Numbered from the stretch's first letter, positions 6,384 to 61,026 are shown. The stretch: 64,000 bases of DNA from Candidatus Eiseniibacteriota bacterium (GCA_013140805.1 JABFRW010000055.1:4102-68101); one strand, 5' to 3'. The notes: generated by a model not told the origin, from the sequence alone. Program-made: numbers and translations.

Positions 6384-7139
6384 CTAGCCCAGATCCAGCG
6401 CGAGCGCGAAGGTCGCCTCGTAGCCGGCCCGTGACCGGGTCGGGGCGATGAGGAGCTGCGACCCGCCCTGCCGAAACAGCCCGTCGCGCGAGTTCCGCAA
6501 CTCGCGTACACCGCGCGCGGCGTAGGGCGCGAGCTTGTGGACGCGGTCGGTCACTGCGTCGTCGAAGTAGACCTGACTCGTGAACTCGTGTCCGCGCGCT
6601 GCGTCGGGTTCGGTGCGCACCTTGAAATGGATGTGCACCGCGCGCCCGCGGTACCAGCCAGGATAGATGGTCGTGAAGCGCGCACGACCCTCGGCATTCG
6701 TGAGTTGATGACCACGGAGGAACTTCTGCCCCGCAGTGTCGAACTCGGAGTCCGCCACGTCCGAGTATGCGCCGCGTGCGTCGCAGTGCCACACGTCGAC
6801 CCGCGCGCCCGGCACCGCCCGGCACGTCGCGCCGGACAGCCGCGTGACGTCGAACGCGAGATCGAGTCGCGCTCCAGCGCTCAACGCCCCGGTCGAAGGA
6901 TCGGTGCGGATGTCCGAGCGCGAGAGGCGTTCGTCGATGAAGAAGGGGCCCTCGGTCTGTTCGGGGCGAACGATGCAGCGCGGCAGCCCCTCGGCTTGCG
7001 AGCGAGCGAGCGGATCGAACGGCATCCCGGCGGCCAGCGAGCCCGCGGTCACTCCGAGCAGCGTGAGCACTTCGCGGCGGGTGAACAGCCTTCCTACCGG
7101 AACATCGTCATCGTGCATGGCTCCCCCCCAGGCGTTCAT
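6384..7139 (-). CDS. Intradiol ring-cleavage dioxygenase family protein with Tat signal
   Basis: Twin-arginine signal TRREVLTLLGVTAGSLAAG. Core GPFFIDERL...GARVDVWHCDARGAYS...FLRGHQLTNAEGRARFTTIYPGWYRGRAVHIHFKV matches the protocatechuate/catechol dioxygenase family. Sits immediately upstream of the ECF sigma gene on the same strand. Confidence 0.8.
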   Translation of the reverse strand: MNAWGGAMHDDDVPVGRLFTRREVLTLLGVTAGSLAAGMPFDPLARSQAEGLPRCIVRPEQTEGPFFIDERLSRSDIRTDPSTGALSAGARLDLAFDVTRLSGATCRAVPGARVDVWHCDARGAYSDVADSEFDTAGQKFLRGHQLTNAEGRARFTTIYPGWYRGRAVHIHFKVRTEPDAARGHEFTSQVYFDDAVTDRVHKLAPYAARGVRELRNSRDGLFRQGGSQLLIAPTRSRAGYEATFALALDLG

Positions 7140-7445
7140 CGTCCAGGCTTCGAAGCGTCGCGTGTTTCATGCGGTCCCAACTCTACTCCTCTGACCACCT
7201 GCACCTCTCGTCTGTTACGACCCTGTCGGCGATCCTTACAAGTCCATGGAGATTCCTGCTCATGCATTCGAACGCTCGCTCGGTGGCGGGTACGTAGCCG
7301 CCTCGTGTTGCGCGGGTTTGGTGTTACGAGGCGGGCGGGCACACCAGTTGCTCAACCAGGTGGGATTCGTTTGCTCGCAGGGCCGACCAATCAGGGGGAG
7401 ATCGTGCTTTCGACCGGGAGGACGCCGGAGCAGCCGTCGTTCGAA

Positions 7446-10355
7446 ATGGACTTCAAGGTTGTTACATGGCGCTGGCGGGTTCCGGGATCGTGGGTCGTGA
7501 TCGCCTCGCTCGGGCTCGCGCTGGCCTCGCCGGCGATCACCCGCGCGGCCTCGTTCGAGCCCACCGTCATCTACCCGATTCTCGGCGATGTCGCTACTGG
7601 CTCGCCCGTGGTCGGCGACCTCGACGAGGACGGCCGCCTCGACGTCGTCGGACAGGATCGCACGCTGCCCGGCGTCGCGCTGTGGATGAGCTCCGCAGCT
7701 GGACCGCTCGTCGAGGGTCCGCACCTCGCGATCTCGGGATGCGTGAGCTTCAAGCTCGCGCGCGTCGACAGCGATGCACACTTGGACCTCGTGGTCATGC
7801 GATCGGCTCCCTCGCCGAGAGTCGAAGTGTTTCGCGGGCTCGGTAACGGCAACTTCATGCCGGGAGTCGAATCGCTGCTCACCACCCTCCCGGCGGGATG
7901 GTGTGTCGGCGAGGTCACCGGCGACGCGAGCCTCGACCTGGTCGCAGTCGGCACGGCCTCGTTCGATATTTTGAGCGGCAACGGAAGCGGAGGCTTCACA
8001 CCCCTGAGCACCACGCAGATTCCCGCCGGCTACGGCCCGTCGGTCGTCGCGGATCTGAATGGCGACGCGCAGTCGGAGATCGTACTGAGCCGCGCCCGCT
8101 ATGACGACGGGGCTGCGACCGTGTTGGTCGTTCGCGACGACGTGATCTCGGGATGGGTCGTCGATCAGTCGCTGCCGGGGCCCGCCTGTCTCTCGATCTC
8201 GTTCACGGTGCGCGACCTCGACATGGACAACCGCCCCGACATTCTCGTCGCCAGCGAATGCGGCGGCGCGGAGCTCTACTGGAATCAGGGCGACGGAACA
8301 TTTGGCGCGACAACGCTGGCGCTCGAGGCGAACCCCGACTCGCTGCTGGCGGCGAAGGCAGCGCAAGCCGCGGGCGCTCCGCTGTTCTGGAACGGTTCCG
8401 AGGCGGCAGGAGACGCGGAGCTGCTGCTGAATGCCGCGGACGAGCCGTGGGTTCCCGCGGATCTCGATGGAGATGGCCGCCCCGAGCTGGTACGTACCGC
8501 GCGCAGCGTGGGCGGTCGCCTGGGCACGGCGCGCATCCGCGCGGATCGATCCGTGGCCGAGTTCTTCGACGGAGCACTGGGCGGCAACGTGGAGAACCGA
8601 TACGGCGCCGTGCGACTCGCAGCCGGCGATGCAGACGGAGACGGTCGCGAGGAGGTCTTCGCGCTCCTGCCGGAGCCGCCCGGCGGCGGCATCTTCAAGG
8701 GACTCGCGGTCGTGACTCGCAGGCGCGGGGCTCACGTCAGCCTGCCCGAGCTCTACGCGATTCCCGCGACCGACTCGCTGATCGGAATCGGCGACGTGAG
8801 CCCGACGCCGGGGCCGGAACTAGTGTTCCGTGGCCCGGGAGGCGTGCGCGTCACGCGCGAACGTCCGGACGGCGATCTGGATCCGTTCGAAATCCTTCGC
8901 CCCGATGTTCGCGGTGCGTTGCCGCCGTTTTCGGGCGGGGGTCACCGGCTGATTGCGCTGAGCAACGGAACGATCACGACACTTGAGAAACTGATTGGCA
9001 GTGGCATGACGACGATGCTCGGATCGATCGCCGCTCCGGCCGTGATCGCCTCAGGAGATCTGAATGGCGATGGACTCACCGATGTGATCGCGCACACGCT
9101 GAGCGGCGGTGTCACTCCGTTCCTCGGCCAGTCGGGCGGTGGCTTCACGACGGCCGCCACGCTCGAGGTGCCTGGAGACGGTTGGGGAACCGCGTTTTCG
9201 CTCGGCGACCTCGATCGCGACGGACACGACGAGCTGATCGTGGGTGTCGATGGCCCCGGTGTGGATGGGATCGATTCTCTCGTGGTCTACGGTCTCGCCG
9301 GAAGCTCGGTGTTCCAGCGCAACCGTGCGATCACCTTTGGACCGTTCTCCGACAATCACGGTCCACTCCACCCTTCCTTCGTCGCAGTCGCGGAGTTCAG
9401 CGGCGACTCACGCCCCGACTTGTTGCTGAATCTCGGCGGTCCCGGTCACAGCAATCTTCGACTGCTGGTGCAGCTCGCCGACGGCTCATTCGACTTCCGC
9501 GCCTCGCCCGGACGGATCGACTCGGAAGGCTATCCCACGCCAGCCTATGGCGATCTCGATGGAGATGGCGACCTGGACGTCGCGTCGACCGGGCTGTTCG
9601 ATGGCTACAGCTCGGCGCTGCGCATTGGTTTCAACGACGGCTCGGGCGGCGAGGCCGGCAACTTCTTCACGTTTCTGCCGACCTACTACACGCGTGAGGC
9701 CTACGTCGGAGATCTCGACTCCGACGGCGCCGGCGACGTCGCGGCGTGGGTCGCACTGACCGCCAGCAGCAGCCCCAGTGTCGTCATCGCTCACGGCAAG
9801 CCACAGAACTTCCCGACCGCCGTCCGGTTCCACTGGCTCGAAGCGACTGCAGGCTCGCGCGGCGTTCATCTGCGCTGGGGCTACCAGGCGGACCCGGGAA
9901 CCCTCATGACGCTCGAGCGCTGGTCGGATTCGAGCTGGAACATTGCCGATACGCAGGTGGCCTCGGGCTCAGGAAGTGCCGAGTTCACGGATTCCCATGC
10001 TGCTTCGGGAGCAAGCCATCGATATCGCGTGCTGTACGTGGTGAATGGCAAGTCGCTCACGAGCCCCGAAGTCGTCGTGACGCTCAGGCGGCAGGCGATC
10101 ACGCTGCGCGTCCTCGATAGCGCCCGGTCGAGCAGTTCGCTTCGACTCGCGCTCGACTCTCTGCAGCCTGGTCCTGCGCGACTCGATTTGTTCGATGTCG
10201 GCGGTCGGCGGATCGCCGAGCTTCGAATGCACGCCACAGCTCCGAGCCAGACCGTCGATTGGTCGCTCCCGGGATCGATGGCGTCAGGGCTCTACTGGAT
10301 CTCGCTCGATCAGTCGGGCGAACGTGTCAGCACCAGGGTCGCAATCGCGAAGTAA
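7446..10355 (+). CDS. Secreted FG-GAP repeat beta-propeller protein with T9SS C-terminal domain (paralog of 1203..4082)
   Basis: In-frame ATG at 7446 gives signal peptide MDFKVVTWRWRVPGSWVVIASLGLALASPAITRAA. Many DxDxDG loops (GDLDEDGRLDVVG, ADLNGDAQSEIV, DLDMDNRPDILV, DLDGDGRPELV, GDLNGDGLTDVIA, GDLDRDGHDELIV, GDLDGDGDLDVAS). C-terminus ...VDWSLPGSMASGLYWISLDQSGERVSTRVAIAK is T9SS-CTD-like. The ORF-track 5' extension (6537..7445) overlaps the dioxygenase gene on the other strand and is rejected. Confidence 0.8.
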   Translation: MDFKVVTWRWRVPGSWVVIASLGLALASPAITRAASFEPTVIYPILGDVATGSPVVGDLDEDGRLDVVGQDRTLPGVALWMSSAAGPLVEGPHLAISGCVSFKLARVDSDAHLDLVVMRSAPSPRVEVFRGLGNGNFMPGVESLLTTLPAGWCVGEVTGDASLDLVAVGTASFDILSGNGSGGFTPLSTTQIPAGYGPSVVADLNGDAQSEIVLSRARYDDGAATVLVVRDDVISGWVVDQSLPGPACLSISFTVRDLDMDNRPDILVASECGGAELYWNQGDGTFGATTLALEANPDSLLAAKAAQAAGAPLFWNGSEAAGDAELLLNAADEPWVPADLDGDGRPELVRTARSVGGRLGTARIRADRSVAEFFDGALGGNVENRYGAVRLAAGDADGDGREEVFALLPEPPGGGIFKGLAVVTRRRGAHVSLPELYAIPATDSLIGIGDVSPTPGPELVFRGPGGVRVTRERPDGDLDPFEILRPDVRGALPPFSGGGHRLIALSNGTITTLEKLIGSGMTTMLGSIAAPAVIASGDLNGDGLTDVIAHTLSGGVTPFLGQSGGGFTTAATLEVPGDGWGTAFSLGDLDRDGHDELIVGVDGPGVDGIDSLVVYGLAGSSVFQRNRAITFGPFSDNHGPLHPSFVAVAEFSGDSRPDLLLNLGGPGHSNLRLLVQLADGSFDFRASPGRIDSEGYPTPAYGDLDGDGDLDVASTGLFDGYSSALRIGFNDGSGGEAGNFFTFLPTYYTREAYVGDLDSDGAGDVAAWVALTASSSPSVVIAHGKPQNFPTAVRFHWLEATAGSRGVHLRWGYQADPGTLMTLERWSDSSWNIADTQVASGSGSAEFTDSHAASGASHRYRVLYVVNGKSLTSPEVVVTLRRQAITLRVLDSARSSSSLRLALDSLQPGPARLDLFDVGGRRIAELRMHATAPSQTVDWSLPGSMASGLYWISLDQSGERVSTRVAIAK

Positions 10356-10366
10356 ACCTCGCGCGG

Positions 10367-10398
10367 CACCCGGAGCGAAGTGACGATCGCTTCGGGTG
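10367..10398. terminator. Hairpin between convergent genes (11-bp stem with one G-U pair, 10-nt loop); possible bidirectional terminator
   Basis: cacccggagcg-aagtgacgat-cgcttcgggtg lies between the FG-GAP gene stop (10355) and the pyrF stop (10414). No strong U-tract follows on either strand. Confidence 0.3.
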
Positions 10399-10413
10399 TG
10401 CGCCGCGGGGCGA

Positions 10414-11127
10414 TCAGCCCGCCAGACTCCCGACCGCCGCATCGCGCTCGGCGCGTGCGGCCTCGAGTGCGGCGCGTGGATCTGCGGCGCCGGTCACGGC
10501 GCGGCCCAGCACCAGCAAGCTCGAGCCGAGCCGCACCGCTTCGGTGATGGTGGCGACGCGCGCCTGATCCTGAGCAGCACCGCCGGCCGGGCGAATGCCG
10601 GGGGTCACGGCGAAGAACGGCTCTCGATAGCACGCGCGCACCGCTTCCAGATCGGGTGCCGCGCATACGATGCCGTGGGCACCTGCGGTCAGCGACAGGC
10701 GCAGCAACCGCTCGATCACCAGGTCCTTGAAGAACGGCTTCTCGAAGCCGGGCGGCAGGCTGTCGGTGTCGAGACTGGTGAGCAGCGTTACGGCCACGAC
10801 CTTGGTGCTCCCTCCCGCGGACTCGATTCCCTCGACCGCCGCCGACACCATCGCCGCGCCGCCGGGAGCATGCACCGTCAGCAGATCGGCGCCGTGGCGT
10901 GCGGCCGAAGCGGCGGCGCCGCGCACGGTGTTCGGAATGTCGTGCAGCTTGAGGTCGAGAAACACGCGTCGTCCGCGTTCTTTGATGGCGCGGATTGCAG
11001 CAGGTCCCTCGGCCACGAACAGCTCGAGACCCACTTTCGCGTATTCGGGGCCGGGCCCCAGCCGCTCATCGAGCGCGAGTGCGGCCGCTATCGACGGTAC
11101 GTCGAACGCGATGGCGATCTCGGTCAT
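10414..11127 (-). CDS. pyrF: Orotidine 5'-phosphate decarboxylase
   Basis: MTEIAIAFDVPS...VFLDLKLHDIPNTV...DLLTVHA...VVAVTLLTS...LGSSLLVLGRAV matches OMP decarboxylase motifs. ATG at 11127 overlaps the pyrD stop by 4 bp. Confidence 0.9.
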   Translation of the reverse strand: MTEIAIAFDVPSIAAALALDERLGPGPEYAKVGLELFVAEGPAAIRAIKERGRRVFLDLKLHDIPNTVRGAAASAARHGADLLTVHAPGGAAMVSAAVEGIESAGGSTKVVAVTLLTSLDTDSLPPGFEKPFFKDLVIERLLRLSLTAGAHGIVCAAPDLEAVRACYREPFFAVTPGIRPAGGAAQDQARVATITEAVRLGSSLLVLGRAVTGAADPRAALEAARAERDAAVGSLAG

Positions 11128-12101
11128 CGGGCAACTTCCGCGCGTGCAGGCCGACCGTTTGCGCTCGGACGCAGAGCGTCCATCAAGCAGCCCCGCCACT
11201 CATCGATCGACTTGATCCCACGCAGCGTGAGCTGACTCCGCAGGTCTTCGAGCACTTCCTGCGCGGCGCGGGGTCGCACGAAGCTCGCCGTACCCACCTG
11301 AACGGCAGTGGCGCCGACCGCGATGAACTCGAGCGCGTCTCGCGCATTCATGATGCCGCCCGAGCCGATCACCGGAATGCGCACCGCTCGTGCGGCCTCA
11401 TGACAGCGCGCCAGTGCGAGTGGCTTGATCGCGGGCCCCGACACTCCGCCGGTCGCGCGATTGAGCTTCGATCGCCGCTGGTCGAGATCGACCGCCATGC
11501 CGACGAAGGTGTTTACCGCGGTGACCGCGTCGGCACCGCCTTGCTCGCACGCGATCGCGAGGTCTCCCACCGATGTGACGTCCGGGGACAGCTTCGCAAT
11601 CAGCACATGACGCGTCAGTCCGCGCAGCCGCTTCATGGTGCGCTCGAGTCGTCGCGGTACCGCCCAGTACCGCGCGCCACCGCGCGATACGTTTGGACAC
11701 GAGAAGTTGATCTCGAAACCGGCCAGATCGCGTTCGTCACCCAGCGCCTCCAACAGGCGCACCAGTTCGTTCGTGGTCTCGCCGCCAACCGACACGATCA
11801 CGTGAGCGCCGAGCTTCCGCAGCTTGGGGAGCTTCTCGGCGCGGTAGCGCGCGAGTCCGACGTTCTCGAGTCCGATCGAGTTCAGCATTCCCGCCGGCGT
11901 CTCGGCGATGCGCGTGGGCGCGTTGCCGGCCCGCGGTTCGACGGTCACGGTCTTGGTGATCACCGCACCGAGTGCGCTCAGTTCCACCACGTGCGCGTAC
12001 TCGTCGCCGTAGCCGAAGGTGCCCGACGCGGTCAGGATCGGATTGCTCAGCACCAGCGAGCCAATGCGTGTGGTCAACCGCGGAGTCCGGGTGGCGCTCA
12101 T
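11124..12101 (-). CDS. pyrD: Dihydroorotate dehydrogenase, class 1B catalytic subunit
   Basis: MSATRTPRLTTRIGSLVLSNPILTASGTFGYGDEY...GAVITKTVT...NSIGLEN...INFSCPN...GGADAVTAVNT...GVSGPAIKPLAL...IPVIGSGGI. In-frame ATG at 12101 overlaps the pyrK stop by 4 bp. Confidence 0.9.
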   Translation of the reverse strand: MSATRTPRLTTRIGSLVLSNPILTASGTFGYGDEYAHVVELSALGAVITKTVTVEPRAGNAPTRIAETPAGMLNSIGLENVGLARYRAEKLPKLRKLGAHVIVSVGGETTNELVRLLEALGDERDLAGFEINFSCPNVSRGGARYWAVPRRLERTMKRLRGLTRHVLIAKLSPDVTSVGDLAIACEQGGADAVTAVNTFVGMAVDLDQRRSKLNRATGGVSGPAIKPLALARCHEAARAVRIPVIGSGGIMNARDALEFIAVGATAVQVGTASFVRPRAAQEVLEDLRSQLTLRGIKSIDEWRGCLMDALRPSANGRPARAEVAR

Positions 12102-13033
12102 TCCACGCGATCCCAATCGAGGTCCGCAGCCGCAAACACCGGCCCTTCGGTGCAGCACATCGCGTACTCCTGGTTGCCGTACAGCGAGGGACTGGTGCCA
12201 CGCTCGCGATCGAATCGCCGCCGCGACTCCTCGCTGCGCGGCATCGGACAGCCGCGACACACTCCGGTGCCGCACGCCATCACGGACTCCATCGCGAGGT
12301 GCGCGCGGCGGCCGTGCGTCAGCGCCCATCGCGCCACGGCTTCGAGCATGCGGTGCGGCCCGCACGAGTGAATGACGAGCGGGCCCGGGTGCGTTCGCCG
12401 AAGCCTCTCGAGCAGCAGCAGCACGTTGCCCCGCGTTCCCCTGCTGCCGTCGTCGGTGGCGAGGTGCAGCTCGCTCCCACTCTTCGAGAGTCTCCGCTTC
12501 GCATCGTCGAGCCCGACCAGCAACTCACGCGTTCGTGCCCCGAACAGAAATACGCACGGGCGACTCTGCGCGGCCAGTGCATCGGCTGCGAACAGCAGAG
12601 GCGCCACGCCACGGCCGCCTGCGATCAACACCGGCGTTCCGGACTCCTCGAGCGGATAACCGCGCCCCAGCGGTCCGAGCAATTCGATCGCATCGCCGGG
12701 ACCGAGTGCCGCGAGCGACTGCGTGCCGGTGCCGACCGGCGCGTAGAGAAAACTCAGCGTGAGGCGCCCACGCGTCAGTTTCGCATCCGCGATGCTCATG
12801 GGTCGCGGCAGCAACACCGGCGACGGCGCCACCAGCAGCAGCTGAACGAACTGCCCCGCAACGGGCACGGTCATGCCGCTCGAGACTTCGAGGTCGAGCC
12901 ACCGATGGCCGGCGCCGTAGTCCTCGTGACGAGTGACCCGCGCGATCGCCTGACTCCAGGTCGGACGGTACTCGGCGAGGCTCGCGCGAGTTTGAAGGGC
13001 CGACGGGCGCGGTGCGGTCACGGCGCGGGTCAT
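12098..13033 (-). CDS. pyrK: Dihydroorotate dehydrogenase electron-transfer subunit (FAD / 2Fe-2S)
   Basis: FAD/NAD-binding region followed by a C-terminal Cys cluster (MACGTGVCRGC...CC). Adjacent to pyrD, as in class 1B DHODH operons. Confidence 0.85.
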   Translation of the reverse strand: MTRAVTAPRPSALQTRASLAEYRPTWSQAIARVTRHEDYGAGHRWLDLEVSSGMTVPVAGQFVQLLLVAPSPVLLPRPMSIADAKLTRGRLTLSFLYAPVGTGTQSLAALGPGDAIELLGPLGRGYPLEESGTPVLIAGGRGVAPLLFAADALAAQSRPCVFLFGARTRELLVGLDDAKRRLSKSGSELHLATDDGSRGTRGNVLLLLERLRRTHPGPLVIHSCGPHRMLEAVARWALTHGRRAHLAMESVMACGTGVCRGCPMPRSEESRRRFDRERGTSPSLYGNQEYAMCCTEGPVFAAADLDWDRVE

Positions 13034-14889
13034 GGTTTGTTCGCGGGAGCCGGTGGACCCGTGAGGCTCGAGTCGGGGGCGCTCGGTGCAACGGGTACGG
13101 GCGGCGAACTGACGGCGAGCGAATCACGCGACGAGCGATCCAGAGAGTCTGGACGGAATCGCGCCGGCAGCCCGCGTGAAGGATCGAGCATCAGCATGCC
13201 CGGCGGCACGAGCCGCCCGAGCGAATCGAATCGCGCCGCGGGCGTGTCCGGGCTTCCGTACAGCGAGCGGCCGTAGCCCGAACGCAGCAGCGAGTCCGCC
13301 ATCATCTGGCGGCGGTCCATTGCGGTCGGCGTGGGCGCCGGGGGCGGGAGCAGGTCCTTGACCGTGTCGGCGTGCGAAGGCACCGGAGGCAGTTTGATCA
13401 GCGAATCGGGCACCTGGATCCCGGACTCCTCGAGATAGTCACGCGCAGCGAGTTGCGCTTCGGTTTCGGGGTGATGGCGCACCACCTCCCACCACAGAGA
13501 GTCGGCGCGTTTGGGTTGATCGAGCTTGTTGCGAAGCACCCACGCTTCGGCCGTCATCGCCTTCGCTTCCCACGGCGTTCCCTTGAGGTCGGAAGCGAGC
13601 TTGGAGTATTCCTCGAGTGCTCGATCCGGCTTGTCGAGCTGGAACAAGTAGAGCTCGGCGCGCATCAGCGCCGCCTCTGCGATACGAACCGACGAGTCGC
13701 TGCCGGTCGAGTTCCGGTACTGCGCGAGTCTCGCCAGCTGAGCGTCGCGCTGGGACGCCTGGCCGACGAACGACGACGACGGCGACTGCAGGCGCACCTT
13801 TCCATACTCTTCGCGAGCGCGTTCGAAGTCGTCCGCGACCGTCTCGAACACGTAGCCCACGCGAAACTGCGCCTCGGCCGCGAGCGGCTGGCGCCAGTAG
13901 CGCGCGATCACGTCGTTGAAAGACTCGAGGGCTCCGTCGCGATTGCCGCTCTGGGCCAACACCGTGCCGATTCGCAGTTTGAGGCGACCCCATCGCTCCG
14001 CCTGCCGATTGCTGGTACCGCCGAAGCCGGCCGTCGCCGCGGCGGTGTCGACCAGCGCCGGCTCGCGCTCGTAGCCGATCGCGCCGCGCAGCAGTCCGAG
14101 TGCTCCATTCCAGTCGCGCGCCGCTTCGTAGCAGTCGACTTCGCGCAACAGGAAGGTGAAGCGATCGTCGTCGTTGTCCGCCCGGCGGCCCAGCTCGGCA
14201 AAGTCCGCGCGTGCCTTGTCGGTCTGCCGGCCGGTCAGCAAACCCTCAGCGCGTGCCTGCAATGCCCGCTCGCGAAGCAGGTGCTTGGGCCAGCCTTCGA
14301 CGACACGACTCGCGGCCTCGGCCGCGTCGAGCGGGCGATCGAGCGACAGCAGCACACGCGACCGCTCGAGATGCGCGTAAGGCGTCAGGTCGTGCTTGGG
14401 TGCCGAGGCGAGGAAGTCGTCAAAGGCGCCGAGCGAGGTTGCGTACTTGCGCGAGTGACGCAGTGCGAGGGCGCGATAGAACGCCGCTTCGCGTCTCAGC
14501 GAGCTCTCGGGGTAGCGCAACGGAAACTCCTCGAGCAGCTCGATCGCCTGACCCGGGTCGTCCTTGCCGATCAGCGACTTCGCCCACATCAGATAGGCAT
14601 CGTCGACCCACTTGGACTTGGCGTAGACGCCCATCACCTTCTTCGAGTAGTCGATCGCCTTGTTGTACTGCGGCACGACATTCGCGGTGGTGCCGCTCTG
14701 CGTGAGCGCGCTCGAGCCACCCTTGTCGACCGCGTACGGCAGCCCGTTCGTGGCGTTGTTGTAGTTGCGGCGCGCCAGGAAGAAGGTGTTGTAGTAGGCA
14801 CACGAAGACAGGATCACGAGCGCGAGCGCTGCCGCCGCAAGTGCCGTCGCATTCGATGCGGTGAGTCTCGAGTCGCGGGTCGGCCGCAC
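13030..14889 (-). CDS. Tetratricopeptide-repeat lipoprotein embedded in the pyr operon
   Basis: Signal plus lipobox (ALAAAALALVILSSC) and multiple TPR-like helical repeats. Start overlaps the carB stop (TGATG) and its stop overlaps the pyrK start (ATGA). Confidence 0.7.
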   Translation of the reverse strand: MRPTRDSRLTASNATALAAAALALVILSSCAYYNTFFLARRNYNNATNGLPYAVDKGGSSALTQSGTTANVVPQYNKAIDYSKKVMGVYAKSKWVDDAYLMWAKSLIGKDDPGQAIELLEEFPLRYPESSLRREAAFYRALALRHSRKYATSLGAFDDFLASAPKHDLTPYAHLERSRVLLSLDRPLDAAEAASRVVEGWPKHLLRERALQARAEGLLTGRQTDKARADFAELGRRADNDDDRFTFLLREVDCYEAARDWNGALGLLRGAIGYEREPALVDTAAATAGFGGTSNRQAERWGRLKLRIGTVLAQSGNRDGALESFNDVIARYWRQPLAAEAQFRVGYVFETVADDFERAREEYGKVRLQSPSSSFVGQASQRDAQLARLAQYRNSTGSDSSVRIAEAALMRAELYLFQLDKPDRALEEYSKLASDLKGTPWEAKAMTAEAWVLRNKLDQPKRADSLWWEVVRHHPETEAQLAARDYLEESGIQVPDSLIKLPPVPSHADTVKDLLPPPAPTPTAMDRRQMMADSLLRSGYGRSLYGSPDTPAARFDSLGRLVPPGMLMLDPSRGLPARFRPDSLDRSSRDSLAVSSPPVPVAPSAPDSSLTGPPAPANKP

Positions 14890-17800
14890 TAGATTCGCTC
14901 CTGCAGTGCGGTCACTTCGAGCGGTCCGCGCCGCATCGCTTCGATGCCGGAGGTCGCGGCAAGGGCGCCCGCGACCGTCGTGATCACCGGCACTCCGTAC
15001 GCGATCGCACTGGCGCGAATCGCCTTCTCGTCGTACTCGGACGTACGTCCGAGCGGGGTGTTGATCACGAGCTGGATCTCTGCGGATTCGATCATGTCCA
15101 CCACGTTGGGCCGCCCCTCGTGCACCTTGAAAACCTGGCGGCAGGGTACTCCGTTGCGTGCCAGGAAGCGCGCGGTGCCCCGCGTCGCCACCAGGTCATA
15201 CCCCAGTTCGACCAGTTTCTTCGCCATGAACGTGATGGCACGCTTGTCGTCGTCCCGCAGGCTCAGGAACACGGTTCCACTGTCGGGAAGCGGATCCCCC
15301 GAGCCCAGGTGAGCCTTGGCGAGTGCGCGGCCGAAGTCCATGTCGCGCCCCATCACCTCGCCGGTCGACTTCATCTCGGGGCCCAGCAGCGAGTCCTCGC
15401 CCGGGAAGCGGGCGAACGGAAGCACCGGTTTCTTGACGCTCACCATGGTGGCTTCGGGCGCTTCGGCGGGTGCGATGTCCGCCAGTCGCTCGCCCGCCAT
15501 GACACGCGCCGCGATTCGCGCAAGCGGAAGGCCGATCGCTTTGCTCACGAACGGTACGGTGCGCGAGGCGCGCGGATTGGCCTCGAGCACGAACACCTCG
15601 TCGTTGCGCACCGCGAACTGCACGTTCAGAAGCCCCTTGACGCCGAGCGCGTGAGCGAGCTTGGCCGTCACGCGGCGCACCTCGGCGACCGTTTCTTCGC
15701 CGAGCGTGAATGGCGGGATCACGCACGTGGAGTCACCGGAATGGATCCCGGCTTCCTCGATGTGCTCCATCACCGCACCGATCAGCACCGTTTCGCCATC
15801 CGCAACCGCGTCCACGTCGACTTCGAGGGCGCCGCCCAGGAACTGATCCACCAGCACCGGCTCCGCGGCCGACACGAGCGCTTCGTGCTCGAGCCAGTCG
15901 CGCAGCTCTTCCTCGCGATACACCACGCGCATGCCGCGCCCACCGAGTACGTACGAAGGCCGCACCAGCACCGGATAACCGAGCGTACGCGCCGCGTGCA
16001 GCGCCTCGGCCGGCGATGCGGCGGTGAGACTCGGTGGCTGCAGCAGGCCCAGCTCCTGAATGAGCAATCGGAATCGCTCACGATTCTCGGCCAGGTCGAG
16101 CCCGTCGAACGGCGTGCCCCACAACGGCACGCCCGCCTCGTGGAGCGATCGCGCCAGCTTGAGCGGCGTCTGCCCGCCGAGCTGAACGATTACGCCGATC
16201 GGCTTCTCAGCCTCGACCACGTTCAGCACGTCTTCCGTAGTGAGCGGCTCGAAGTAGAGACGACTCGAGATGTCGTAGTCGGTGCTCACCGTCTCGGGAT
16301 TCGAGTTGACGATCAGCACATCGTAGCCGCGCTCCTTCAGCTCGAGCGCCGCCTGCACGCAGCAGTAGTCGAACTCGAGCCCCTGTCCGATTCGATTGGG
16401 CCCGCTGCCCAAAATGATCACGCGCGGCCGCGTGCTCGTGGGCGTCTCGGTCTCATCTTCGTAGGTCGAGTAGAAGTAGGGCGTCTCGGCTGCGAATTCG
16501 GCGCCGCAGGTGTCGACGGCCTTCATCACCGGCAGGATCCCTTCCTCGTGACGGCGTCTCCGTACTTCGACCTCGGTGGTATCGAGTCGGTCCGCGAGCG
16601 TCAAATCCGAGATGCCGAGCCGCTTGGCTTCGTAGACGAGCCCCTCGCTCCATGCCGCTTCGGAGTCGCGGGTCGCGACCGTCGTCAGCTCGTGATCGAG
16701 ATCGGTGATGCGCTTCATCTGATGCAGGAACCACGGGTCCACGCCGGTCGCCGCCGCCACCGACTCCGGGCTCTCACCGCTTGCGAGCACGCGGAACAGG
16801 TCACGCAGTCGATCGGCGTACGGCTCGCGGATCGCCTCGATCAGTCCCGGCAGCTCGATCGCGGCCGCCGGCCCCGGCAGGAGGCCGCTCCCGCTCTCGA
16901 GTCCACGCCAGCCCTTGAGCAGCGCCTCGGGGAAGTTGCGTCCGATCGCCATCACCTCGCCCACCGACTTCATGCGCGTGCCGAGGCGCGGATCGGCGCC
17001 GCGGAACTTTTCGAACGCCCAGCGCGGGATCTTGACCACGCAGTAATCGAGCGTCGGCTCGAAACACGCCGGCGTCTTCCGGGTGATGTCGTTCGGGATC
17101 TCGTCGAGCGTGAGCCCGGCCGCGAGCAGCGCCGCGATCTTTGCGATCGGGAACCCGGTGGCCTTGCTCGCGAGCGCCGAGGAGCGGGAGACGCGCGGAT
17201 TCATTTCGATGATGCGCATCTCGCCCGTATCCGGGTGCACGGCGAACTGGATGTTCGATCCGCCCGCTTCGACCTTGATCGCCCGCATCACGCGAAGTGC
17301 TGCGTCGCGCATCTCCTGATAGCAGACATCCGAGAGCGTCTGCGCGGGCGCCACCGTGATGCTGTCACCGGTATGAACGCCGAGCGGATCGAAGTTCTCA
17401 ATCGAGCACACGATCACCACGTTGTCCGCCCGATCGCGCATCACTTCCAGCTCGAATTCCTTCCAGCCGACCAGACACTCTTCGATCAGAATCGAGCCGG
17501 AGCCGCTCTGCGCGATTGCCAGTCGCGCCACTTCGCGCAGCTGCCGGCGATCGTGTACGAGCCCCGAACCCTGCCCGCCGAGCGTGAACGAAGCGCGAAT
17601 CACGAGCGGATACCCGAGCTGCTCGGCCAGCTCCACGGCACCGTGCACGGTGTCCACGTAGCCGGACTTGGGAAGCTGGAGCCCCTCGGCTTCCATGGCG
17701 TGCTTGAAGCGATTGCGATCTTCCGCCGTCTCGATCGCATCGAGCGACGCGCCGATCAACTGCACGTTGTGCTTGGCGAGCACGCCTGAATGCGCGAGCG

Positions 17801-18101
17801 CGATCGCCAGGTTGAGTGCCGTCTGGCCGCCGAGAGTCGGCAGCAGCGCGTCCGGCCTTTCGCGCTCGATGATGCGCTCGGCGATCTCGGGGCGCAGCGG
17901 CTCGATGTAGGTGCGATCGGCGAACTCGGGGTCGGTCATGATCGTGGCCGGGTTCGAGTTGAGCAGCACCACTTCGATGCCGAGTGAGCGCAGCGCGCGA
18001 CAACCCTGGGTCCCCGAGTAGTCGAACTCGCACGCCTGCCCGATCACGATCGGACCAGCGCCGAGGATCAGAACCTTCTTGAGACCGGGGCGGACGGGCA
18101 T
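14889..18101 (-). CDS. carB: Carbamoyl-phosphate synthase large subunit
   Basis: [32 protein letters not shown]... with two ATP-grasp halves and an MGS-like C-terminus; about 1070 aa. ATG at 18101 overlaps the carA stop (TGATG). Confidence 0.95.
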
Positions 18102-19276
18102 CAGCGGGCCTTTCCGGTCGCAAGCTCGGCCGGTTTCATCGTCGACTTCTCGCCCCGCCGCTTCGCGACCGCGTCTGCGAACGCTTTGAACCACGGGCGC
18201 GAGTCATGCGGGCCGGGGGCGGACTCAGGGTGGTACTGACACGCGAACACCGGGAGCTTGCGATGCACCATGCCCTCGAGTGAGCGGTCGTTGCCGCTCA
18301 CGTGCGTGATCTCGAACTCGCCCTCCGGCATCGAGTCGACGTCCACATAGAAGCCGTGGTTCTGCGAGGTCACCTCGACGGCATGGGTGCGCAGGTCGAT
18401 CACCGGGTGATTGATGCCTCGATGTCCGAACTTGAGCTTGCCGCTTTTTCCCCCGAACGCGAGGCCGATCAACTGGTGGCCCAGGCAGATGCCGAGCGTG
18501 GGCACCGCCTTCGCCACTTCGCGCGTGGCGTCGATCGCGAAGTCGAGCGGCTCCGGGTCGCCCGGGCCATTCGACAGCACGACGCCATCGGGCTTCATCG
18601 CGAGCACCTCGCGCGCGGGCGTGCGCGCCGGCACCACACGCACGCGGAAGCCCTCGATGCGCAGCCGCCGCAGAATGTTGTACTTGACGCCAAAGTCGTA
18701 GACCAGGGCGAGAGGCTTCGCGGCATCGGCCGCGTCGTCGGTCTCGGCAGGCCCGAAAGCGCCCCACCAGTAGGGCTCGCTGGTCGTGACGAGATCGGCG
18801 AGTGCCAGGCCCATCATGCTCGGGCTCCTGCGCGCCTTCTCGACCAGCACGTCGGCGTCGGACTCGGTCGCCGAGAGACAGCCACGCATGACGCCGGCGG
18901 AGCGCAGGTGACGCGTGAGTGCTCGGGTATCGATGCCGCAGATCCCGGGCACGTTGCGCTGCTCGAGCAAGTCTTGAAGCCGCCCAGTCGAGCGCCAGTT
19001 GCTTGGCACCTCGCATACCTCGCGACAGATCATGCCCTGCGCGCGGAGGCGATCGCTCTCGAAGTCCTCGGAGTTGACGCCGTAATTGCCCATGAGCGGA
19101 TAAGTGAAGGTGACGATCTGGCCGCAGTAGGAAGGATCGCTCAACACTTCCTGGTAGCCGCTCATTGCGGTGTTGAACACCACTTCGCCGGTCGTCTCGG
19201 TGGGCGCACCGAACGACTCGCCGCGGAATACGCGGCCATCTTCCAGCGCGAGGATCGCCGGCGGGCGACGCTTCAC
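18101..19276 (-). CDS. carA: Carbamoyl-phosphate synthase small subunit (glutamine amidotransferase)
   Basis: [50 protein letters not shown]...GICLGHQLI (class I GATase). GTG at 19276 overlaps the pyrC stop (GTGA). Confidence 0.9.
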
Positions 19277-20601
19277 ATCGCCCCCACGGCCGCGCCCGTT
19301 TCGGCGCCGCGACGAATCACGACTGCGGGAAGCGCGTGCGTGATCCGACCGCCGCACATCGTGAGTGCTGCGCGACCGCGAACCTGCATCCCACCAAACG
19401 GCGTGTTGCGGCCCTTCGAGTAGAAGGCTGCAGGCTCGACCGTCCAGCGCTCCTCCGGCTCGAGCAGCACCAGGTCGGCGGGCGAGCCCACTTCGAGCGA
19501 AACCTGCGGAAGCCCGAACACGCGCCGCGGCGCATCGGTCCACAGCTCGATCGCGCGAGCGAGCGACAGGTGACCGGGCTCGACGAGCCCGGTCACGGTG
19601 AGCGCGATCGCGGTCTCGAGCCCCACGATCCCGAAGGGTGCCGCATCAAAGGTCTGGCGCTTCTCTTCGAAGGTGTGGGGGGCGTGATCGGTGGTGAGGC
19701 AATCGATCGTTCCATCCACGATCGCTTCGATGGTCGCAAGGCGGTCGTGCTCGGCGCGCAGTGGCGGATTCATCTTGGCGTGTGTGTCGTAATCGCCGAC
19801 GGCTTCCTCGGTGAGCATCCAGTAGTGCGGGCAGGTTTCGCCGGTCACGTTCAGGCCGCGCCGCCTCGCATGGCGCAAGGCTTCGAACGAGCTCGCGCAC
19901 GAGAGGTGTGCCAGGTGCACGCGACCGCGCGTAAGCGCCGCGAGATCGACGTCGCGCCACGCCATCACGCTCTCGGCCTGGCTCGGAATGCCGCGGATCC
20001 CGAGCCGCGTTGCGACCGCGCCTTCGTTCATGTGGCCATCGCCCTTGAGCGTGAGGTCTTCCTCGTGACACACGATCGGCAGCCCGAGCGGACGCGAGTA
20101 TTCGAGTGCCCGGCGCATGATCGCCGCACTCATTACCGGGCGCCCGTCGTCCGAGAACGCGACCGCACCCGCGGCGGCCAGTGCATGCATCTCGGCGAGC
20201 TGCTCGCCCTTCTGGCCGAGTGTCACCACGGCGATCGGATGCACGCGGCAGTGGCCAGACTCGGCCGCGCGCTCGAGTACCCAGCGCACCCACGCTACGT
20301 TGTCGACCACCGGGTTCGTGTTGGGCATGCACGCGACCGCGGTGAATCCGCCCGCCGCAGCCGCGCGCGTGCCGGTCGCGATCGACTCCTTTGAGGTCTG
20401 TCCGGGCTCTCGCAGGTGTACGTGCAGATCGACGAGCCCCGGGGCGAGTACCCGGCCCGCGGCCTCGATCAGCGTGTCGGACTTGATCTCGGCGGATTGC
20501 GACGGGCGCACCTCGACGATCGCGCCGTCTCGCATCGCGACATCGATCGTCGCGCCGCTCTTCCAATGGCGTGCGCCCTGCAGGATCGTCACGCCGCTCA
20601 C
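19273..20601 (-). CDS. pyrC: Dihydroorotase (multifunctional-complex type)
   Basis: VTILQGARHWKSGATIDVAMRDGAIVEV...GLVDLHVHLREPGQTSKESIATGTRAAAAGGFT...DHAPH. GTG at 20601 overlaps the pyrB stop (GTGA); an alternative in-frame ATG lies at 20634. Confidence 0.85.
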   Translation of the reverse strand: MSGVTILQGARHWKSGATIDVAMRDGAIVEVRPSQSAEIKSDTLIEAAGRVLAPGLVDLHVHLREPGQTSKESIATGTRAAAAGGFTAVACMPNTNPVVDNVAWVRWVLERAAESGHCRVHPIAVVTLGQKGEQLAEMHALAAAGAVAFSDDGRPVMSAAIMRRALEYSRPLGLPIVCHEEDLTLKGDGHMNEGAVATRLGIRGIPSQAESVMAWRDVDLAALTRGRVHLAHLSCASSFEALRHARRRGLNVTGETCPHYWMLTEEAVGDYDTHAKMNPPLRAEHDRLATIEAIVDGTIDCLTTDHAPHTFEEKRQTFDAAPFGIVGLETAIALTVTGLVEPGHLSLARAIELWTDAPRRVFGLPQVSLEVGSPADLVLLEPEERWTVEPAAFYSKGRNTPFGGMQVRGRAALTMCGGRITHALPAVVIRRGAETGAAVGAM

Positions 20602-21587
20602 GCGGCCGCCTTCGCGAGCGAGCCCGCGCACCATTCGAGCACCGCGCAGCGCACCGCCACACCGTTCTCGACCTGGTCGAAGATCACCGAGCGTTCGCCG
20701 TCGGCCACATCGGGCGCAATCTCGACGCCGCGATTCATGGGCCCCGGGTGCATGACGACTGCGTGCGGCTTCATGCGCGAGACGCGCTCGGCGTTGAGCC
20801 CCCACTCGCGCGCGTACTCGCCCATGCTCGGCAGCAGCCCGCACTCCATGCGCTCGCGCTGGATGCGCAGCGCCATCGCGGCGTCTGCGCCCTCGAGCGC
20901 CTCGTCGGCCGAATGCGCGACACGCACGCCGAGCGATTCGACTTCGGCCGGCAGCAGCGTCGCCGGGCCCGCGACCGTGATCGTCGCACCCAGCTTGCGC
21001 AGTCCGTGGATTGCGGAGCGCGCGACGCGTGAGTGCGCGATGTCACCGACGATCGCCATGCGGCGACCCTCGAATCGACCGTCCCAAGCGTCGCGCAGCG
21101 TCAGCAGGTCGAGCAGGCCCTGCGTCGGGTGCTCGTGCGTGCCGTCGCCGCCATTCACCACGATCGCGTCCAAGTGCCTCGCCAGGTGCGCGGCCGAACC
21201 CGATGACGGATGCCGCACCACCAGCACGTCCACGTTCATCGCGGCGATCACGCGCGCGGTATCGAGCAATGTCTCGCCCTTGGATACCGAAGAGCCGCTC
21301 GCGGAGAACGAAACGCGCGTAGCCCCGACCCGCTGCTCCGCCAGCTCGAACGAAATGCGCGTGCGCGTCGAGTCCTCGAAGAACGCGTTGCACACGGTCA
21401 CGCCTCGAGGCCTCTCGCACGGCAGTTCACGCGTGCGGGCCCGCTCGCGCCATTTGGCCGCATCCTCGAGGAGTGCGAGCAGCGTCTCGCGCTGCAGGTG
21501 TTCGAGGCCGAGCAGATGGCGCGGATGAGACGAAGCCCCTGCGCCGCTGGGCGCCGGGGCGTGTGGGTGCAATCGGGCATGGTTCAT
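20598..21587 (-). CDS. pyrB: Aspartate carbamoyltransferase catalytic subunit
   Basis: MNHARLHP...HLLGLEHL...FFEDSTRTRISFELA...HPTQGLLDLLT...PGPMNRGVEI. ATG at 21587 is preceded by AAAGGGAGAG; an alternative GTG lies at 21605. Confidence 0.9.
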   Translation of the reverse strand: MNHARLHPHAPAPSGAGASSHPRHLLGLEHLQRETLLALLEDAAKWRERARTRELPCERPRGVTVCNAFFEDSTRTRISFELAEQRVGATRVSFSASGSSVSKGETLLDTARVIAAMNVDVLVVRHPSSGSAAHLARHLDAIVVNGGDGTHEHPTQGLLDLLTLRDAWDGRFEGRRMAIVGDIAHSRVARSAIHGLRKLGATITVAGPATLLPAEVESLGVRVAHSADEALEGADAAMALRIQRERMECGLLPSMGEYAREWGLNAERVSRMKPHAVVMHPGPMNRGVEIAPDVADGERSVIFDQVENGVAVRCAVLEWCAGSLAKAAA

Positions 21588-21625
21588 CGGCTCTCCCTTT
21601 GCCACCTCTCGGGGCGGCCTTAAAG
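21588..21625 (-). promoter_or_regulatory. Putative PyrR-binding RNA motif over the pyrB ribosome-binding site
   Basis: Minus-strand leader GGCCGCCCCGAGAGGUGGCAAAGGGAGAGCCG-AUG matches the PyrR binding-loop consensus (UCCAGAGAGGCUGGCAAGG) with one or two changes. It directly abuts the RBS, which would favour translational repression. Confidence 0.55.
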
Positions 21626-21674
21626 GATGTGCGTGATCGGGAACTGGGGCGCGACTTTAGGTCACGCGTCTCCC

Positions 21675-22637
21675 CTACGCAACCCGATTTCCGGCACGAT
21701 CGAGATCGTGCTCGACCGGCTTCGGAGCGACACTCCGTGCCTTCGCCGGAGCCAGCGTGATCAGCGCGACTGCCCCCACGATCAGCGCACCCGACAGGAT
21801 CACGCGTGCCGTGATGGCCTCACCTCCGAACGCCCAGCCGAGCAGCACGGCGACGATCGGGTTCACGAACGCGTAGGTCGAAACCCGCGCAGGCGTCGTC
21901 GCGCTCAGCAGCCACGCATAGGCGGTGAATCCCACGATCGATCCGAACACGATCAGGTAGAGCATCGCGCTCACGGCGCGCGGAGTGATCGTCGCCGCGG
22001 CGAGCCGCGGCAGCTCCCCGGTCGCGACGATCGGCACCGTGAAGAGCGCGCCGGCGCACAGCATCTGCATCGCGGCACCCATCAGTTTGGAGGCCGGCAT
22101 CTCGAGCTTCGGCGCCTGCAACGAGCCATACGCCCACGCCAGCGAGCCGATGGTGAGCACGATGGCCGGAACGACCGGCATTGCGCCGCTCGCGCGCGTT
22201 GCCGCCGGGCCGACCAGCATCACGATGCCTGCAAATCCGACTGCGAGCCCCGCGATCACGGCGGGTGCGGGCGTCTTGTGCTCGAGCACGAACGGCAGGA
22301 TCGCCATCCACAGCGGCACCGTGCAGACGATCAGCGAGACGAGCCCCGAGGGCGCGTGCTGAGAGGACCAGGTCACGCCTGCGTTTCCCATGAACAGCAT
22401 GAGTCCGCCGAGGATCAGAGAGGAGCGCCACTGAGCGGCGGTCGGCAGTGCTGCGCCGCGCCACCTCAGGATCGCGAACAGCGCGCCACCCGCGATCAGG
22501 AATCGAATCCCGCCGAGCGAAAAGGGCGGGAACGATTCGAGCGCCCAGTGGATGCCGAGGTAGGTCGAGCCCCAGATCACGTACACACAGGCAAACGCGA
22601 TCAGGATGCGGGCACGGAGACTGCGCGGCATGTTCAT
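21675..22637 (-). CDS. EamA/DMT-superfamily transporter
   Basis: MNMPRSLRARILIAFACVYVIWGSTYLGIHWALE... with ten predicted TM helices and two EamA repeats. ATG at 22637 overlaps the lrp stop by 4 bp. Confidence 0.85.
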   Translation of the reverse strand: MNMPRSLRARILIAFACVYVIWGSTYLGIHWALESFPPFSLGGIRFLIAGGALFAILRWRGAALPTAAQWRSSLILGGLMLFMGNAGVTWSSQHAPSGLVSLIVCTVPLWMAILPFVLEHKTPAPAVIAGLAVGFAGIVMLVGPAATRASGAMPVVPAIVLTIGSLAWAYGSLQAPKLEMPASKLMGAAMQMLCAGALFTVPIVATGELPRLAAATITPRAVSAMLYLIVFGSIVGFTAYAWLLSATTPARVSTYAFVNPIVAVLLGWAFGGEAITARVILSGALIVGAVALITLAPAKARSVAPKPVEHDLDRAGNRVA

Positions 22638-23131: not shown

Positions 23132-23314
23132 CGCCTTGTCCTCCCGTGAGGCGCAACGTGACACATTCTGCAGATGCGCTACAACGGAGAACGATCGTTT
23201 GTGAAATGAAGAACTATCTGAACAATCGTCTGTCGGTGCCCTCATTACAGGACGGATCCCCGTGCGACACGGTGGGTTTCGCGTTCGGCGGGGTGCGCGA
23301 GCCCGCGCGGCGGA

Positions 23315-23746: not shown

Positions 23747-23772
23747 CGCCCTTCGACTCCTTCGCTTCGGCG

Positions 23773-27867: not shown

Positions 27868-29585
<1,718 letters not shown>

Positions 29586-33294: not shown

Positions 33295-33320
33295 GGCAAG
33301 ACACTGTAACCCGACCGGGG

Positions 33321-50832: not shown

Positions 50833-50835
50833 AGA

Positions 50836-61022: not shown

Positions 61023-61026
61023 GCGA

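Follow-up and report, generated by a model that had tools for sequence, protein, structure and literature searches.

A stretch of 64,000 nucleotides (nt) from an uncultured Candidatus Eiseniibacteriota (Eisenbacteria) bacterium (GCA_013140805.1, JABFRW010000055.1:4102-68101), hereafter the window, holds a pyrimidine-biosynthesis (pyr) operon with one gene foreign to the pathway, which encodes a tetratricopeptide repeat (TPR) lipoprotein. Pfam and NCBIfam identified eight genes, all on the minus strand, in the order pyrB, pyrC, carA, carB, the TPR lipoprotein gene, pyrK, pyrD, and pyrF (Table 1). The seven enzyme genes are co-directional and follow the Bacillus-type order, with the single extra gene between carB and pyrK. 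The operon region is ~67% G+C. The start codons were those fitting where the family profiles begin, not those of the longest open reading frames (ORFs). Read directly from the sequence, 5' to 3' along the operon, the junctions are GTGA, GTGA, TGATG, TAGTG, ATGA, ATGA, and ATGA, i.e., five overlaps of 4 nt and two of 1 nt.

These results bear out most of what the first-pass annotation had said of the locus. It described eight co-directional genes overlapping by 1 or 4 nt at every junction, and the sequence, Pfam and NCBIfam agree; its list of junction types left out the TAGTG between carB and the lipoprotein gene, and the statement holds nonetheless. The lipoprotein gene is, as proposed, a true non-pyrimidine member of the unit that overlaps its neighbours at both ends (14889; 13030-13033). 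The interval given for the operon (10414-21605) stands overall, except for its 5' end, for which we propose another position below.

Start codons recur at the same -4/-1 position across the Eisenbacteria loci, and the junction overlaps are therefore beyond chance. Among the species loci, such a codon is available at pyrB-pyrC in 47 of 53, at pyrC-carA in 38 of 41, at carA-carB in 29 of 41, at carB-TPR in 31 of 57, at TPR-pyrK in 49 of 58, at pyrK-pyrD in 55 of 57, and at pyrD-pyrF in 43 of 53, it being understood that an available start codon is no proof that this start is used. The lipoprotein gene has an AGGAG 8 nt upstream of its GTG. The sequence upstream of pyrK, when inspected, had no clear Shine-Dalgarno. 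The equivalog scores of pyrK are below cutoff (112 bits for NF000799). From the anatomy of the genes and their single leader element, we infer that the pyr genes and the TPR lipoprotein gene lie on one transcript.

The leader element is a hairpin. An exact-motif search found CCNGAGAGG immediately 5' of pyrB in 25 related loci as well as in the window, and 5' of pyrR in locus L075. The alignment of 18 loci follows the pattern CCUUUAA, stem, CCGAGAGG, return stem, AAAGGGAG, 5-7 nt, and AUG, and in these loci AAGGGAG is conserved 5-7 nt before the pyrB ATG. Their consensus fold has 10 base pairs, with compensatory changes in six of them. A covariance model built from the element (R1) gave 53 full-length matches in 53 loci, one per locus. 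Wherever coordinates were compared they are 5' of the first cistron (pyrB, or in a distant clade of Eisenbacteria pyrR); none lies before the TPR lipoprotein gene. The minimum-free-energy fold pairs CCUUUA with AAAGGG and places the pyrB Shine-Dalgarno within the stem. Since the hairpin includes the Shine-Dalgarno, it points to translational control and not to attenuation; the leader contains no terminator-like site and lacks the layout of terminator/antiterminator attenuation. The pyrB ORF is open up to the GTG at 21605, where the first-pass annotation began the operon, but the conserved spacing between Shine-Dalgarno and ATG places the likely start at 21587. Hence, the 5' end of the operon is most likely better set at the hairpin (21630..21591), with pyrB starting from this ATG.

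We base the putative assignment of the hairpin as a PyrR site on its motif, its position and the presence of pyrR, not on the curated Rfam model for PyrR sites (RF00515), which gives the window leader 30.3 bits for a gathering score of 54. This model seems to miss the sites of Eisenbacteria despite their strong conservation and compensatory changes. The pyrR of the window is 84% identical to a pyrR-like gene of locus L001 (tblastn) and matches Pribosyltran and UPRTase in Pfam. It is not adjacent to pyrB in this genome; it is in the distant Eisenbacteria clade. Several Eisenbacteria have an EamA gene between pyrR and the pyr genes (L001 4331-5242, L018, and L025 8967-9851). This slot is that of the uracil permease gene pyrP in Bacillus, and by analogy the transporter may have a pyrimidine-related role. 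Further upstream, a protein of ~1,390 residues (29701-33873, minus strand, measured from stop to stop) has a Ser/Thr kinase domain together with an AAA_16 ATPase and TPR repeats. Its gene separates glyS from pyrR in the window; in L001 glyS is directly beside pyrR.

At the 3' end of the unit, the region 10335-10425 folds with -44.1 kcal/mol (z = -2.5), weak evidence for a terminator after pyrF, and a scan with a terminator consensus did not pick up the hairpin at 10367..10399. A scan of 9800-24500 for sigma-70 promoters and intrinsic terminators, which is uninformative for this phylum, returned no promoter-like and four terminator-like sites, no more than in shuffled sequences.

Table 1. Features of the pyr locus and of its lipoprotein (positions count from the first nucleotide of the window; aa, amino acids).
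Feature	Position	Strand	Remarks
pyrB, aspartate carbamoyltransferase catalytic subunit	20598..21587	-	NF002032, 373.8 bits (cutoff 263)
pyrC, dihydroorotase	19273..20601	-	TIGR00857, 404 bits (cutoff 279); GTG start overlaps pyrB stop (GTGA)
carA, carbamoyl-phosphate synthase small subunit	18101..19276	-	TIGR01368, 462.9 bits; GTG start overlaps pyrC stop (GTGA)
carB, carbamoyl-phosphate synthase large subunit	14889..18101	-	NF003671, 1549 bits; ATG and carA stop share 1 base (TGATG)
TPR lipoprotein (X), 619 aa, predicted short PorW/SprE homologue	13030..14889	-	GTG and carB stop share 1 base (TAGTG)
Signal peptide and lipobox of the lipoprotein	aa 1-30	-	Cys30 at 14802..14800
Motif CAYYNTFFLARR of the lipoprotein, after the lipobox		-	N-terminal region
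TPR solenoid of the lipoprotein	aa 72-488, 14676..13426	-	
Disordered tail of the lipoprotein, with repeated D-S/T-L/V motifs	aa ~500-619, 13392..13033	-	
pyrK, class 1B dihydroorotate dehydrogenase electron-transfer subunit	12098..13033	-	PF10418 Fe-S domain and NAD-binding domain; ATG overlaps lipoprotein stop (ATGA)
pyrD, class 1B dihydroorotate dehydrogenase catalytic subunit	11124..12101	-	NF005574, 336.5 bits (cutoff 269); ATGA with pyrK
pyrF, orotidine-5'-phosphate decarboxylase, last gene of the unit	10414..11127	-	NF001273, 215.8 bits (cutoff 193); ATGA with pyrD
Leader RNA hairpin of PyrR-binding type (putative)	21591..21630	-	CCUUUAA-GGCCGC-CCCGAGAGG-UGGC-AAAGGGAG; 3' arm holds the pyrB Shine-Dalgarno
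EamA-family transporter gene, directly upstream of the leader	21675..22625	-	Pfam EamA; tblastn matches in L001, L018, L025
pyrR, presumed trans-acting regulator of the leader hairpin	27871..28416	-	6 kb upstream, outside the operon interval
GC-rich hairpin, candidate terminator without U-tract	10367..10399	-	15 nt past the pyrF stop, between convergent genes
Gene convergent with pyrF	6537..10355	+	Next gene beyond pyrF

The lipoprotein and the PorW/SprE family

The product of the extra gene begins MRPTRDSRLTASNATALAAAALALVILSSC, with a positively charged N-region, a hydrophobic stretch and the lipobox LSSC, whose cysteine (Cys30) is invariant in 119 homologues. The earlier call of a TPR lipoprotein is thus sound. 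Because it has a lipoprotein signal peptide, the protein should be outside the cytoplasm. Across the 119 sequences, 39 columns are invariant, a sign of strong purifying conservation.

Family libraries did not name the protein at their thresholds. In NCBIfam it scores 85 bits for YbgF/CpoB, 40 for BamD and 29 for PorW/SprE, all sub-threshold, and the 28 homologues that we scanned have the same pattern. A profile search of the PDB weakly matched CpoB, YbgF, and BamD. Other phyla came within reach when a second protein search was run from the distant Eisenbacteria clade, and the scores for the PorW/SprE model (NF052312) climb stepwise: from 29 bits in the window protein to 95 in the distant clade (best relative), 144 in Marinimicrobia, where it is the top match, and 162 in KSB1. 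The cutoff of 250 is exceeded by two proteins, P0190 of Balneolaceae with 328 bits and P0211 with 286. The matches are collinear in the proteins that have the N-terminal motif; in the intermediates they set in near profile position 25. The window protein, the intermediates and the proteins that pass the PorW/SprE cutoff all have the lipobox and, after it, AYYNT(F/Y)(F/Y)xA.

We compared the two ends of this series with hhalign, using the 119 Eisenbacteria sequences on one side and 20 PorW/SprE-type sequences on the other (P0211, and P0190 with its relatives, of which UniRef names three PorW/SprE). The alignment has a probability of 99.5% and an E-value of 3.7e-22, with 449 collinear columns (Q8-482 vs T10-638) that extend from the signal peptide through the full solenoid and include a shared SKWVDDA motif. 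A control with an unrelated Bacteroidota TPR family gave an E-value of 1.4e-12 over 326 columns, and this match was internal, not collinear and without the N-terminal motif. SprE is the best natural structural match of the lipoprotein. The first-pass annotation had suggested LptD, BamD or YfgM as possible relatives; none of these is the best match, PorW/SprE is. Long TPR proteins of Bacteroidota, Ignavibacteria and Stahlbacteria (P0168, P0173, P0185, P0189, P0192, and P0201) were considered as family members and had an internal match only; they were not counted because they lack the N-terminal motif.

The lipoprotein is shorter than the members of the PorW/SprE family. The PorW profile has an insertion of ~150 residues where the lipoprotein has a short loop (aa ~390-397), and the lipoprotein also lacks the region past profile position ~640, i.e., the long C-terminal region. 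In SprE, the Finger Region is an insertion in the ninth repeat that binds PorD, and its disordered part is reported to be dispensable for secretion (PMC10994853). By its position, the PorW insertion is probably this Finger Region, and the lipoprotein would then be "fingerless". These comparisons indicate that it is a short homologue of PorW/SprE and, since it lies far under the NF052312 cutoff, not a member of the NCBI equivalog.

PorW and SprE belong to the type IX secretion system (T9SS), which has been attributed to Bacteroidota (PMC10994853). A very large FG-GAP repeat protein of the window (921-4082, plus strand) matches the T9SS type A sorting domain TIGR04183 with 26.8 bits (cutoff 23), the mark of a T9SS cargo. 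The gene convergent with pyrF encodes a second, very large FG-GAP repeat protein (6537-10355, plus strand), whose C-terminal segment looks similar by eye and has no family match. Between the two FG-GAP genes, a minus-strand gene (4286-5734) encodes anti-sigma zinc-finger and CarboxypepD_reg domains.

The C-terminal tail of the lipoprotein (13033-13392, minus strand) is a string of x-D-(S/T)-(L/T/A/V) motifs, which also make up the tails of homologues in A2, L073, and L078. The general O-glycosylation sequon of Bacteroidota is D(S/T)(A/I/L/V/M/T) (PMC8729774). We counted 713 such sequons in 119 tails, compared with 65.9 +/- 8.5 after shuffling. Tail aspartates are followed by serine or threonine in 822 cases, far more than by any other residue, and the aspartate positions are almost the sole conserved columns of the tails. 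This hints that the tail may be heavily O-glycosylated, or else may carry a repeated binding motif. A tail so packed with sequons would imply a general O-glycosylation system of the Bacteroidota type in Eisenbacteria; we know of no description of such a system in this phylum.

Gene order in Eisenbacteria and in other phyla

The TPR protein of the window has a counterpart with 100% identity in a Candidatus Eisenbacteria metagenome assembly. A scan with one genome per species gave 80 loci, nearly all labelled Eisenbacteria, and the differently labelled ones carry the same operon. In essentially every adequately flanked locus, tblastn with the window proteins found the TPR gene flanked by carB on one side and by pyrK-pyrD-pyrF on the other, or, in operons without carAB, by pyrC and pyrK. 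This position is kept even in the distant clade, where the TPR proteins have 27-34% identity. A locus was taken as informative if it included the TPR stop and 1.2 kb or more of downstream sequence; in 54 of 57 such Eisenbacteria species loci, pyrK was scored directly after the TPR gene. The number becomes 55 by synteny, as L076 is a scoring miss in which tblastn shows pyrK right after the TPR gene. In around one Eisenbacteria locus out of five, carA-carB are missing from the operon, which then reads pyrB-pyrC-TPR-pyrK-pyrD-pyrF (L001, L009, L018, L021, L031, L039, L046, L048, L052, L054, L060, L073, L076-L079, and L081). The conserved position indicates that the TPR lipoprotein gene is an ancient resident of the pyr operon, not a lineage-specific or selfish insertion.

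Some metagenome-assembled genomes (MAGs) labelled Saccharimonadaceae, Limnocylindria, Methylomirabilota, Verrucomicrobiia, Bacteroidota or Acidiferrales have an Eisenbacteria-type operon (L004, L006, L022, L036, L078, and L082). Their TPR proteins are 48-53% identical (28% in L078), and the contigs are probably mis-binned or mislabelled.

Beyond the phylum, the gene is found next to the genes of dihydroorotate dehydrogenase (DHODH). The order SIR2-TPR-pyrK-pyrD-(rlpA)-cdsA, with no other pyr genes nearby, occurs in one MAG each of Marinimicrobia and KSB1 and in one further assembly. We added metagenome loci found with a KSB1-led query that was seeded on the N-terminal motif, keeping the best 80 of at least 574 matches. 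Among these and six individually fetched loci, pyrK-pyrD directly follows the TPR gene in 39 of the 56 informative non-Eisenbacteria loci, a count that is taxonomically unresolved and not a phylogenetically corrected frequency. Several of the remaining loci have SIR2-TPR followed by rlpA and/or cdsA. The gap between the TPR gene and pyrK is often of +1 to +60 nt outside Eisenbacteria, without overlap, and the adjacency is retained. In L083, L084, L085 and many of L089-L168, the cluster comprises a SIR2-type deacylase (CobB), a PorW-like lipoprotein, pyrK, pyrD, an RlpA-like DPBB protein, and CdsA. It mixes pyrimidine synthesis with envelope and lipid genes, CdsA being the cytidine triphosphate-dependent phosphatidate cytidylyltransferase.

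A different arrangement occurs in Balneolales. There, a bona fide PorW/SprE gene lies tail-to-tail with a quinone-dependent class 2 pyrD, and the 3' ends overlap by a few bases or lie within 6 nt (L086/L087 10811-10817, L169 7734-7745, and L170 6678-6681). Pyruvate kinase is always directly upstream of PorW in these four loci, whose further neighbours differ. L088, another locus that passes the PorW model, has no pyrD.

Interpretation and comparison with known systems

We consider, with a probability of about 70%, that the locus is one Bacillus-type operon of the PyrR type with an embedded PorW/SprE-homologous lipoprotein, whose linkage before pyrK-pyrD is old. By analogy with known PyrR control, PyrR with uridine mono- or triphosphate would stabilise the leader hairpin and block the translation of pyrB. 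The serial overlaps would hand this control down the operon by coupled translation, and pyrK, with no visible Shine-Dalgarno, would receive the ribosomes that have just finished the lipoprotein gene. The lipoprotein itself would be exported, lipidated at Cys30, and used as a periplasmic scaffold, most likely for a T9SS, and would not take part in the catalysis of pyrimidine synthesis. Being encoded in the operon, it would be produced in step with pyrimidine demand and hence with growth.

Several observations weigh against this interpretation. The protein reaches only 28.9 bits for NF052312, with a cutoff of 250, and its top NCBIfam score is the 85 bits for YbgF/CpoB. No gene of the T9SS machinery (SprA/Sov, PorV, GldKLMN) was seen within the 64-kb window. 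At the gathering threshold, Rfam reported no PyrR match in eight related loci, and the window leader is also sub-gathering. Co-transcription, PyrR binding and coupled translation are all deduced from the sequence. The lipoprotein gene has a good AGGAG of its own, and there may be an internal promoter. In lineages without carAB, the pyrC-TPR gap is mostly 25-300 nt, with no overlap, and therefore leaves room for such a promoter. The count outside Eisenbacteria carries the limits given with it. Finally, L025 (OY970178.1, a complete chromosome, 8340-12600) and L037 (293-2783) have no pyr enzyme genes within 10 kb of the TPR gene, pyrBC and pyrKDF both being absent from the neighbourhood, and R1 finds no leader hairpin in either. 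As these two loci lack both pyr neighbours and hairpin, the tie to pyr control must be dispensable in some lineages. In these two close relatives the TPR gene comes after pyrR, in L025 separated from it by EamA, and the next ORFs of L025 resemble those after pyrF in L001. We dropped the idea that the TPR gene is under PyrR control there through this neighbour, there being no R1 leader hairpin there.

A rival identity for the protein is that of an envelope factor akin to CpoB/YbgF of Tol-Pal or to BamD of outer-membrane protein assembly, not a T9SS component, which would make its likeness to PorW/SprE a generic TPR likeness. The top NCBIfam score speaks for it, but both scores are under their cutoffs (85.3 bits for TIGR02795 vs 90.1, and 40 bits for TIGR03302 vs 81.4). 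The YbgF matches are several partial stretches of a TPR model of 119 positions (two at E 0.001, four at E 0.01). They are also not discriminating, because the proteins that pass the PorW cutoff match this model too, and unrelated long TPR proteins exceed its cutoff. CpoB, whose gene closes tol-pal, is soluble and has ~260 aa, with a coiled coil at the N-terminus and a single TPR domain at the C-terminus; a 619-aa lipoprotein in a pyr operon does not fit this description. BamD, a lipoprotein of ~250 aa with five TPRs, aligns over ~150 residues only and differs in architecture and context. The match to PorW/SprE, by contrast, is collinear over the 449 columns and includes an N-terminal motif outside the TPRs. 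We therefore rejected both identities, and regard an envelope factor of this kind as unlikely.

As for the position of the gene, the first-pass annotation had offered a selfish insertion fixed by the coupling, and envelope-localised assembly or moonlighting, in which the lipoprotein would hold the pyrimidine enzymes at the envelope or assemble them there; a lineage-specific insertion was what it named as refuting its reading. Apart from an unusual position and overlaps on either side, nothing supports these ideas, and we find them, as well as a lineage-specific insertion, very improbable. Since the position is conserved across Eisenbacteria (54-55 of 57 loci, down to 27% identity) and in other lineages, insertion of either sort is excluded; the synteny comparison that the annotation had called for finds that the gene almost never leaves the pyr operon among Eisenbacteria and that other phyla have it linked to pyrK-pyrD. 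The 39 invariant columns also argue against an insertion, and no mobile-element genes or flanking repeats were seen, although no dedicated repeat search was made. Assembly at the envelope finds no support, as the signal peptide should put the lipoprotein outside the cytoplasm, whereas class 1B DHODH (PyrK/PyrD) is a cytoplasmic enzyme type linked to nicotinamide adenine dinucleotide (NAD), and the gene persists without adjacent pyr genes in L025 and L037.

The linkage may have no physiological meaning, i.e., the gene may have fallen by chance before pyrK in an ancestral bacterium of the Fibrobacterota-Chlorobiota-Bacteroidota superphylum, with pyrK coming to depend on translation from upstream, and been frozen there since, because a separation would silence pyrK-pyrD. 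We hold this to be possible, though doubtful. It agrees with a pyrK that has no evident Shine-Dalgarno and whose ATG overlaps the lipoprotein stop, and with the -4/-1 overlap available in 49 of the 58 Eisenbacteria loci. It also agrees with the TPR genes that are apart from pyr genes, in the SIR2-TPR-rlpA-cdsA loci, L025 and L037; as it is found apart from them in some lineages, the lipoprotein does not need these genes. Yet, the adjacency is kept outside Eisenbacteria despite the gaps of +1 to +60 nt, and in Balneolales PorW/SprE abuts a class 2 pyrD on the opposite strand, where coupling is impossible. An adjacency that survives a changed enzyme class and orientation is hard to account for by translational lock-in alone.

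We tentatively suggest, without giving it better odds than a frozen linkage, that the genes of the PorW/SprE family and of DHODH form an ancient functional module across the superphylum. It would have outlasted both the replacement of one DHODH class by another, the NAD-linked PyrK/PyrD by the quinone-linked PyrD, and a change of orientation, and would tie type IX secretion or the production of an outer-membrane scaffold to pyrimidine supply or to the redox activity of DHODH. Pyrimidine supply would here stand for the uridine diphosphate sugars and cytidine diphosphate lipids of the envelope, and integration would have gone furthest in the Eisenbacteria operon, with a component of a secretion system under PyrR control. 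We found no description of the embedded lipoprotein gene or of a linkage between PorW and DHODH in the searchable literature.

Pyr operons and their control by PyrR are textbook material and would be ordinary alone. What sets this operon apart is a gene for an envelope scaffold of the secretion type that is held inside it across a whole phylum, and that stands beside DHODH genes in other phyla. If homology means shared function, the lipoprotein is the PorW/SprE counterpart of Eisenbacteria, KSB1 and Marinimicrobia, and a compact, "minimal" PorW, with no finger and a short tail, is at hand for studies of the structure and evolution of the T9SS outside Bacteroidota. It also raises the question, which we did not find addressed in the searchable literature, of why PorW is linked to dihydroorotate dehydrogenase. 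Furthermore, the operon would offer a clean natural case of translational repression that spreads from the first cistron through serial stop/start overlaps, and across a gene for an exported product.

Elsewhere in the window, positions 50000-62300 are likely a neighbourhood of purine catabolism. The candidates are a molybdopterin subunit of the xanthine-dehydrogenase type (52301-54643, minus strand), a DUF6986 protein with an HpcH/HpaI-like part (58029-59387, plus strand), an epimerase, and a protein with the N-terminal domain of urate oxidase (61027-62244, minus strand).

The closest known counterpart of the operon is that of Bacillus subtilis, pyrR-pyrP-pyrB-pyrC-pyrAA-pyrAB-pyrK-pyrD-pyrF-pyrE, which is regulated by PyrR through three attenuators. 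Both have the same order of the seven enzyme genes, a class 1B DHODH with PyrK, a pyrR, and a leader hairpin with what is probably the PyrR loop motif. Unlike in B. subtilis, the Eisenbacteria unit has the extra lipoprotein gene between carB and pyrK, its pyrR is 6 kb upstream, and it includes neither pyrP nor pyrE. It also has one leader element, whose hairpin covers the ribosome-binding site, and no terminator/antiterminator pair. In this respect it resembles Mycobacterium and Thermus, where PyrR acts by translational repression: a PyrR-type hairpin overlaps the Shine-Dalgarno of the first cistron, here as far as the sequence tells. The pyr clusters of Mycobacterium and Thermus also hold ORFs of unrelated function between pyr genes. 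The gene embedded in the Eisenbacteria operon is of a different family, and to our knowledge no conserved linkage across phyla has been described for those ORFs.

The lipoprotein shares periplasmic repeats of the TPR_6 type with CpoB/YbgF and BamD, of which BamD is also a lipoprotein, and differs from them in size, architecture and gene context, with sub-cutoff matches over only part of its length. Its best counterparts are SprE of Flavobacterium johnsoniae and PorW of Porphyromonas gingivalis, the TPR lipoprotein of the extended translocon of the T9SS (PMC10994853; PDB 8gl8 chain I). Unlike SprE (870 aa), the Eisenbacteria lipoprotein has 619 aa and no counterpart of the insertion that is probably the Finger Region, and it comes from a phylum other than Bacteroidota. 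PorW has ~1,160 aa. Like SprE/PorW, the Eisenbacteria protein is a lipoprotein in which a long TPR scaffold is followed by a disordered tail. O-glycosylation is known for SprE, and the Eisenbacteria lipoprotein has its tail packed with the sequon of Bacteroidota (PMC8729774).

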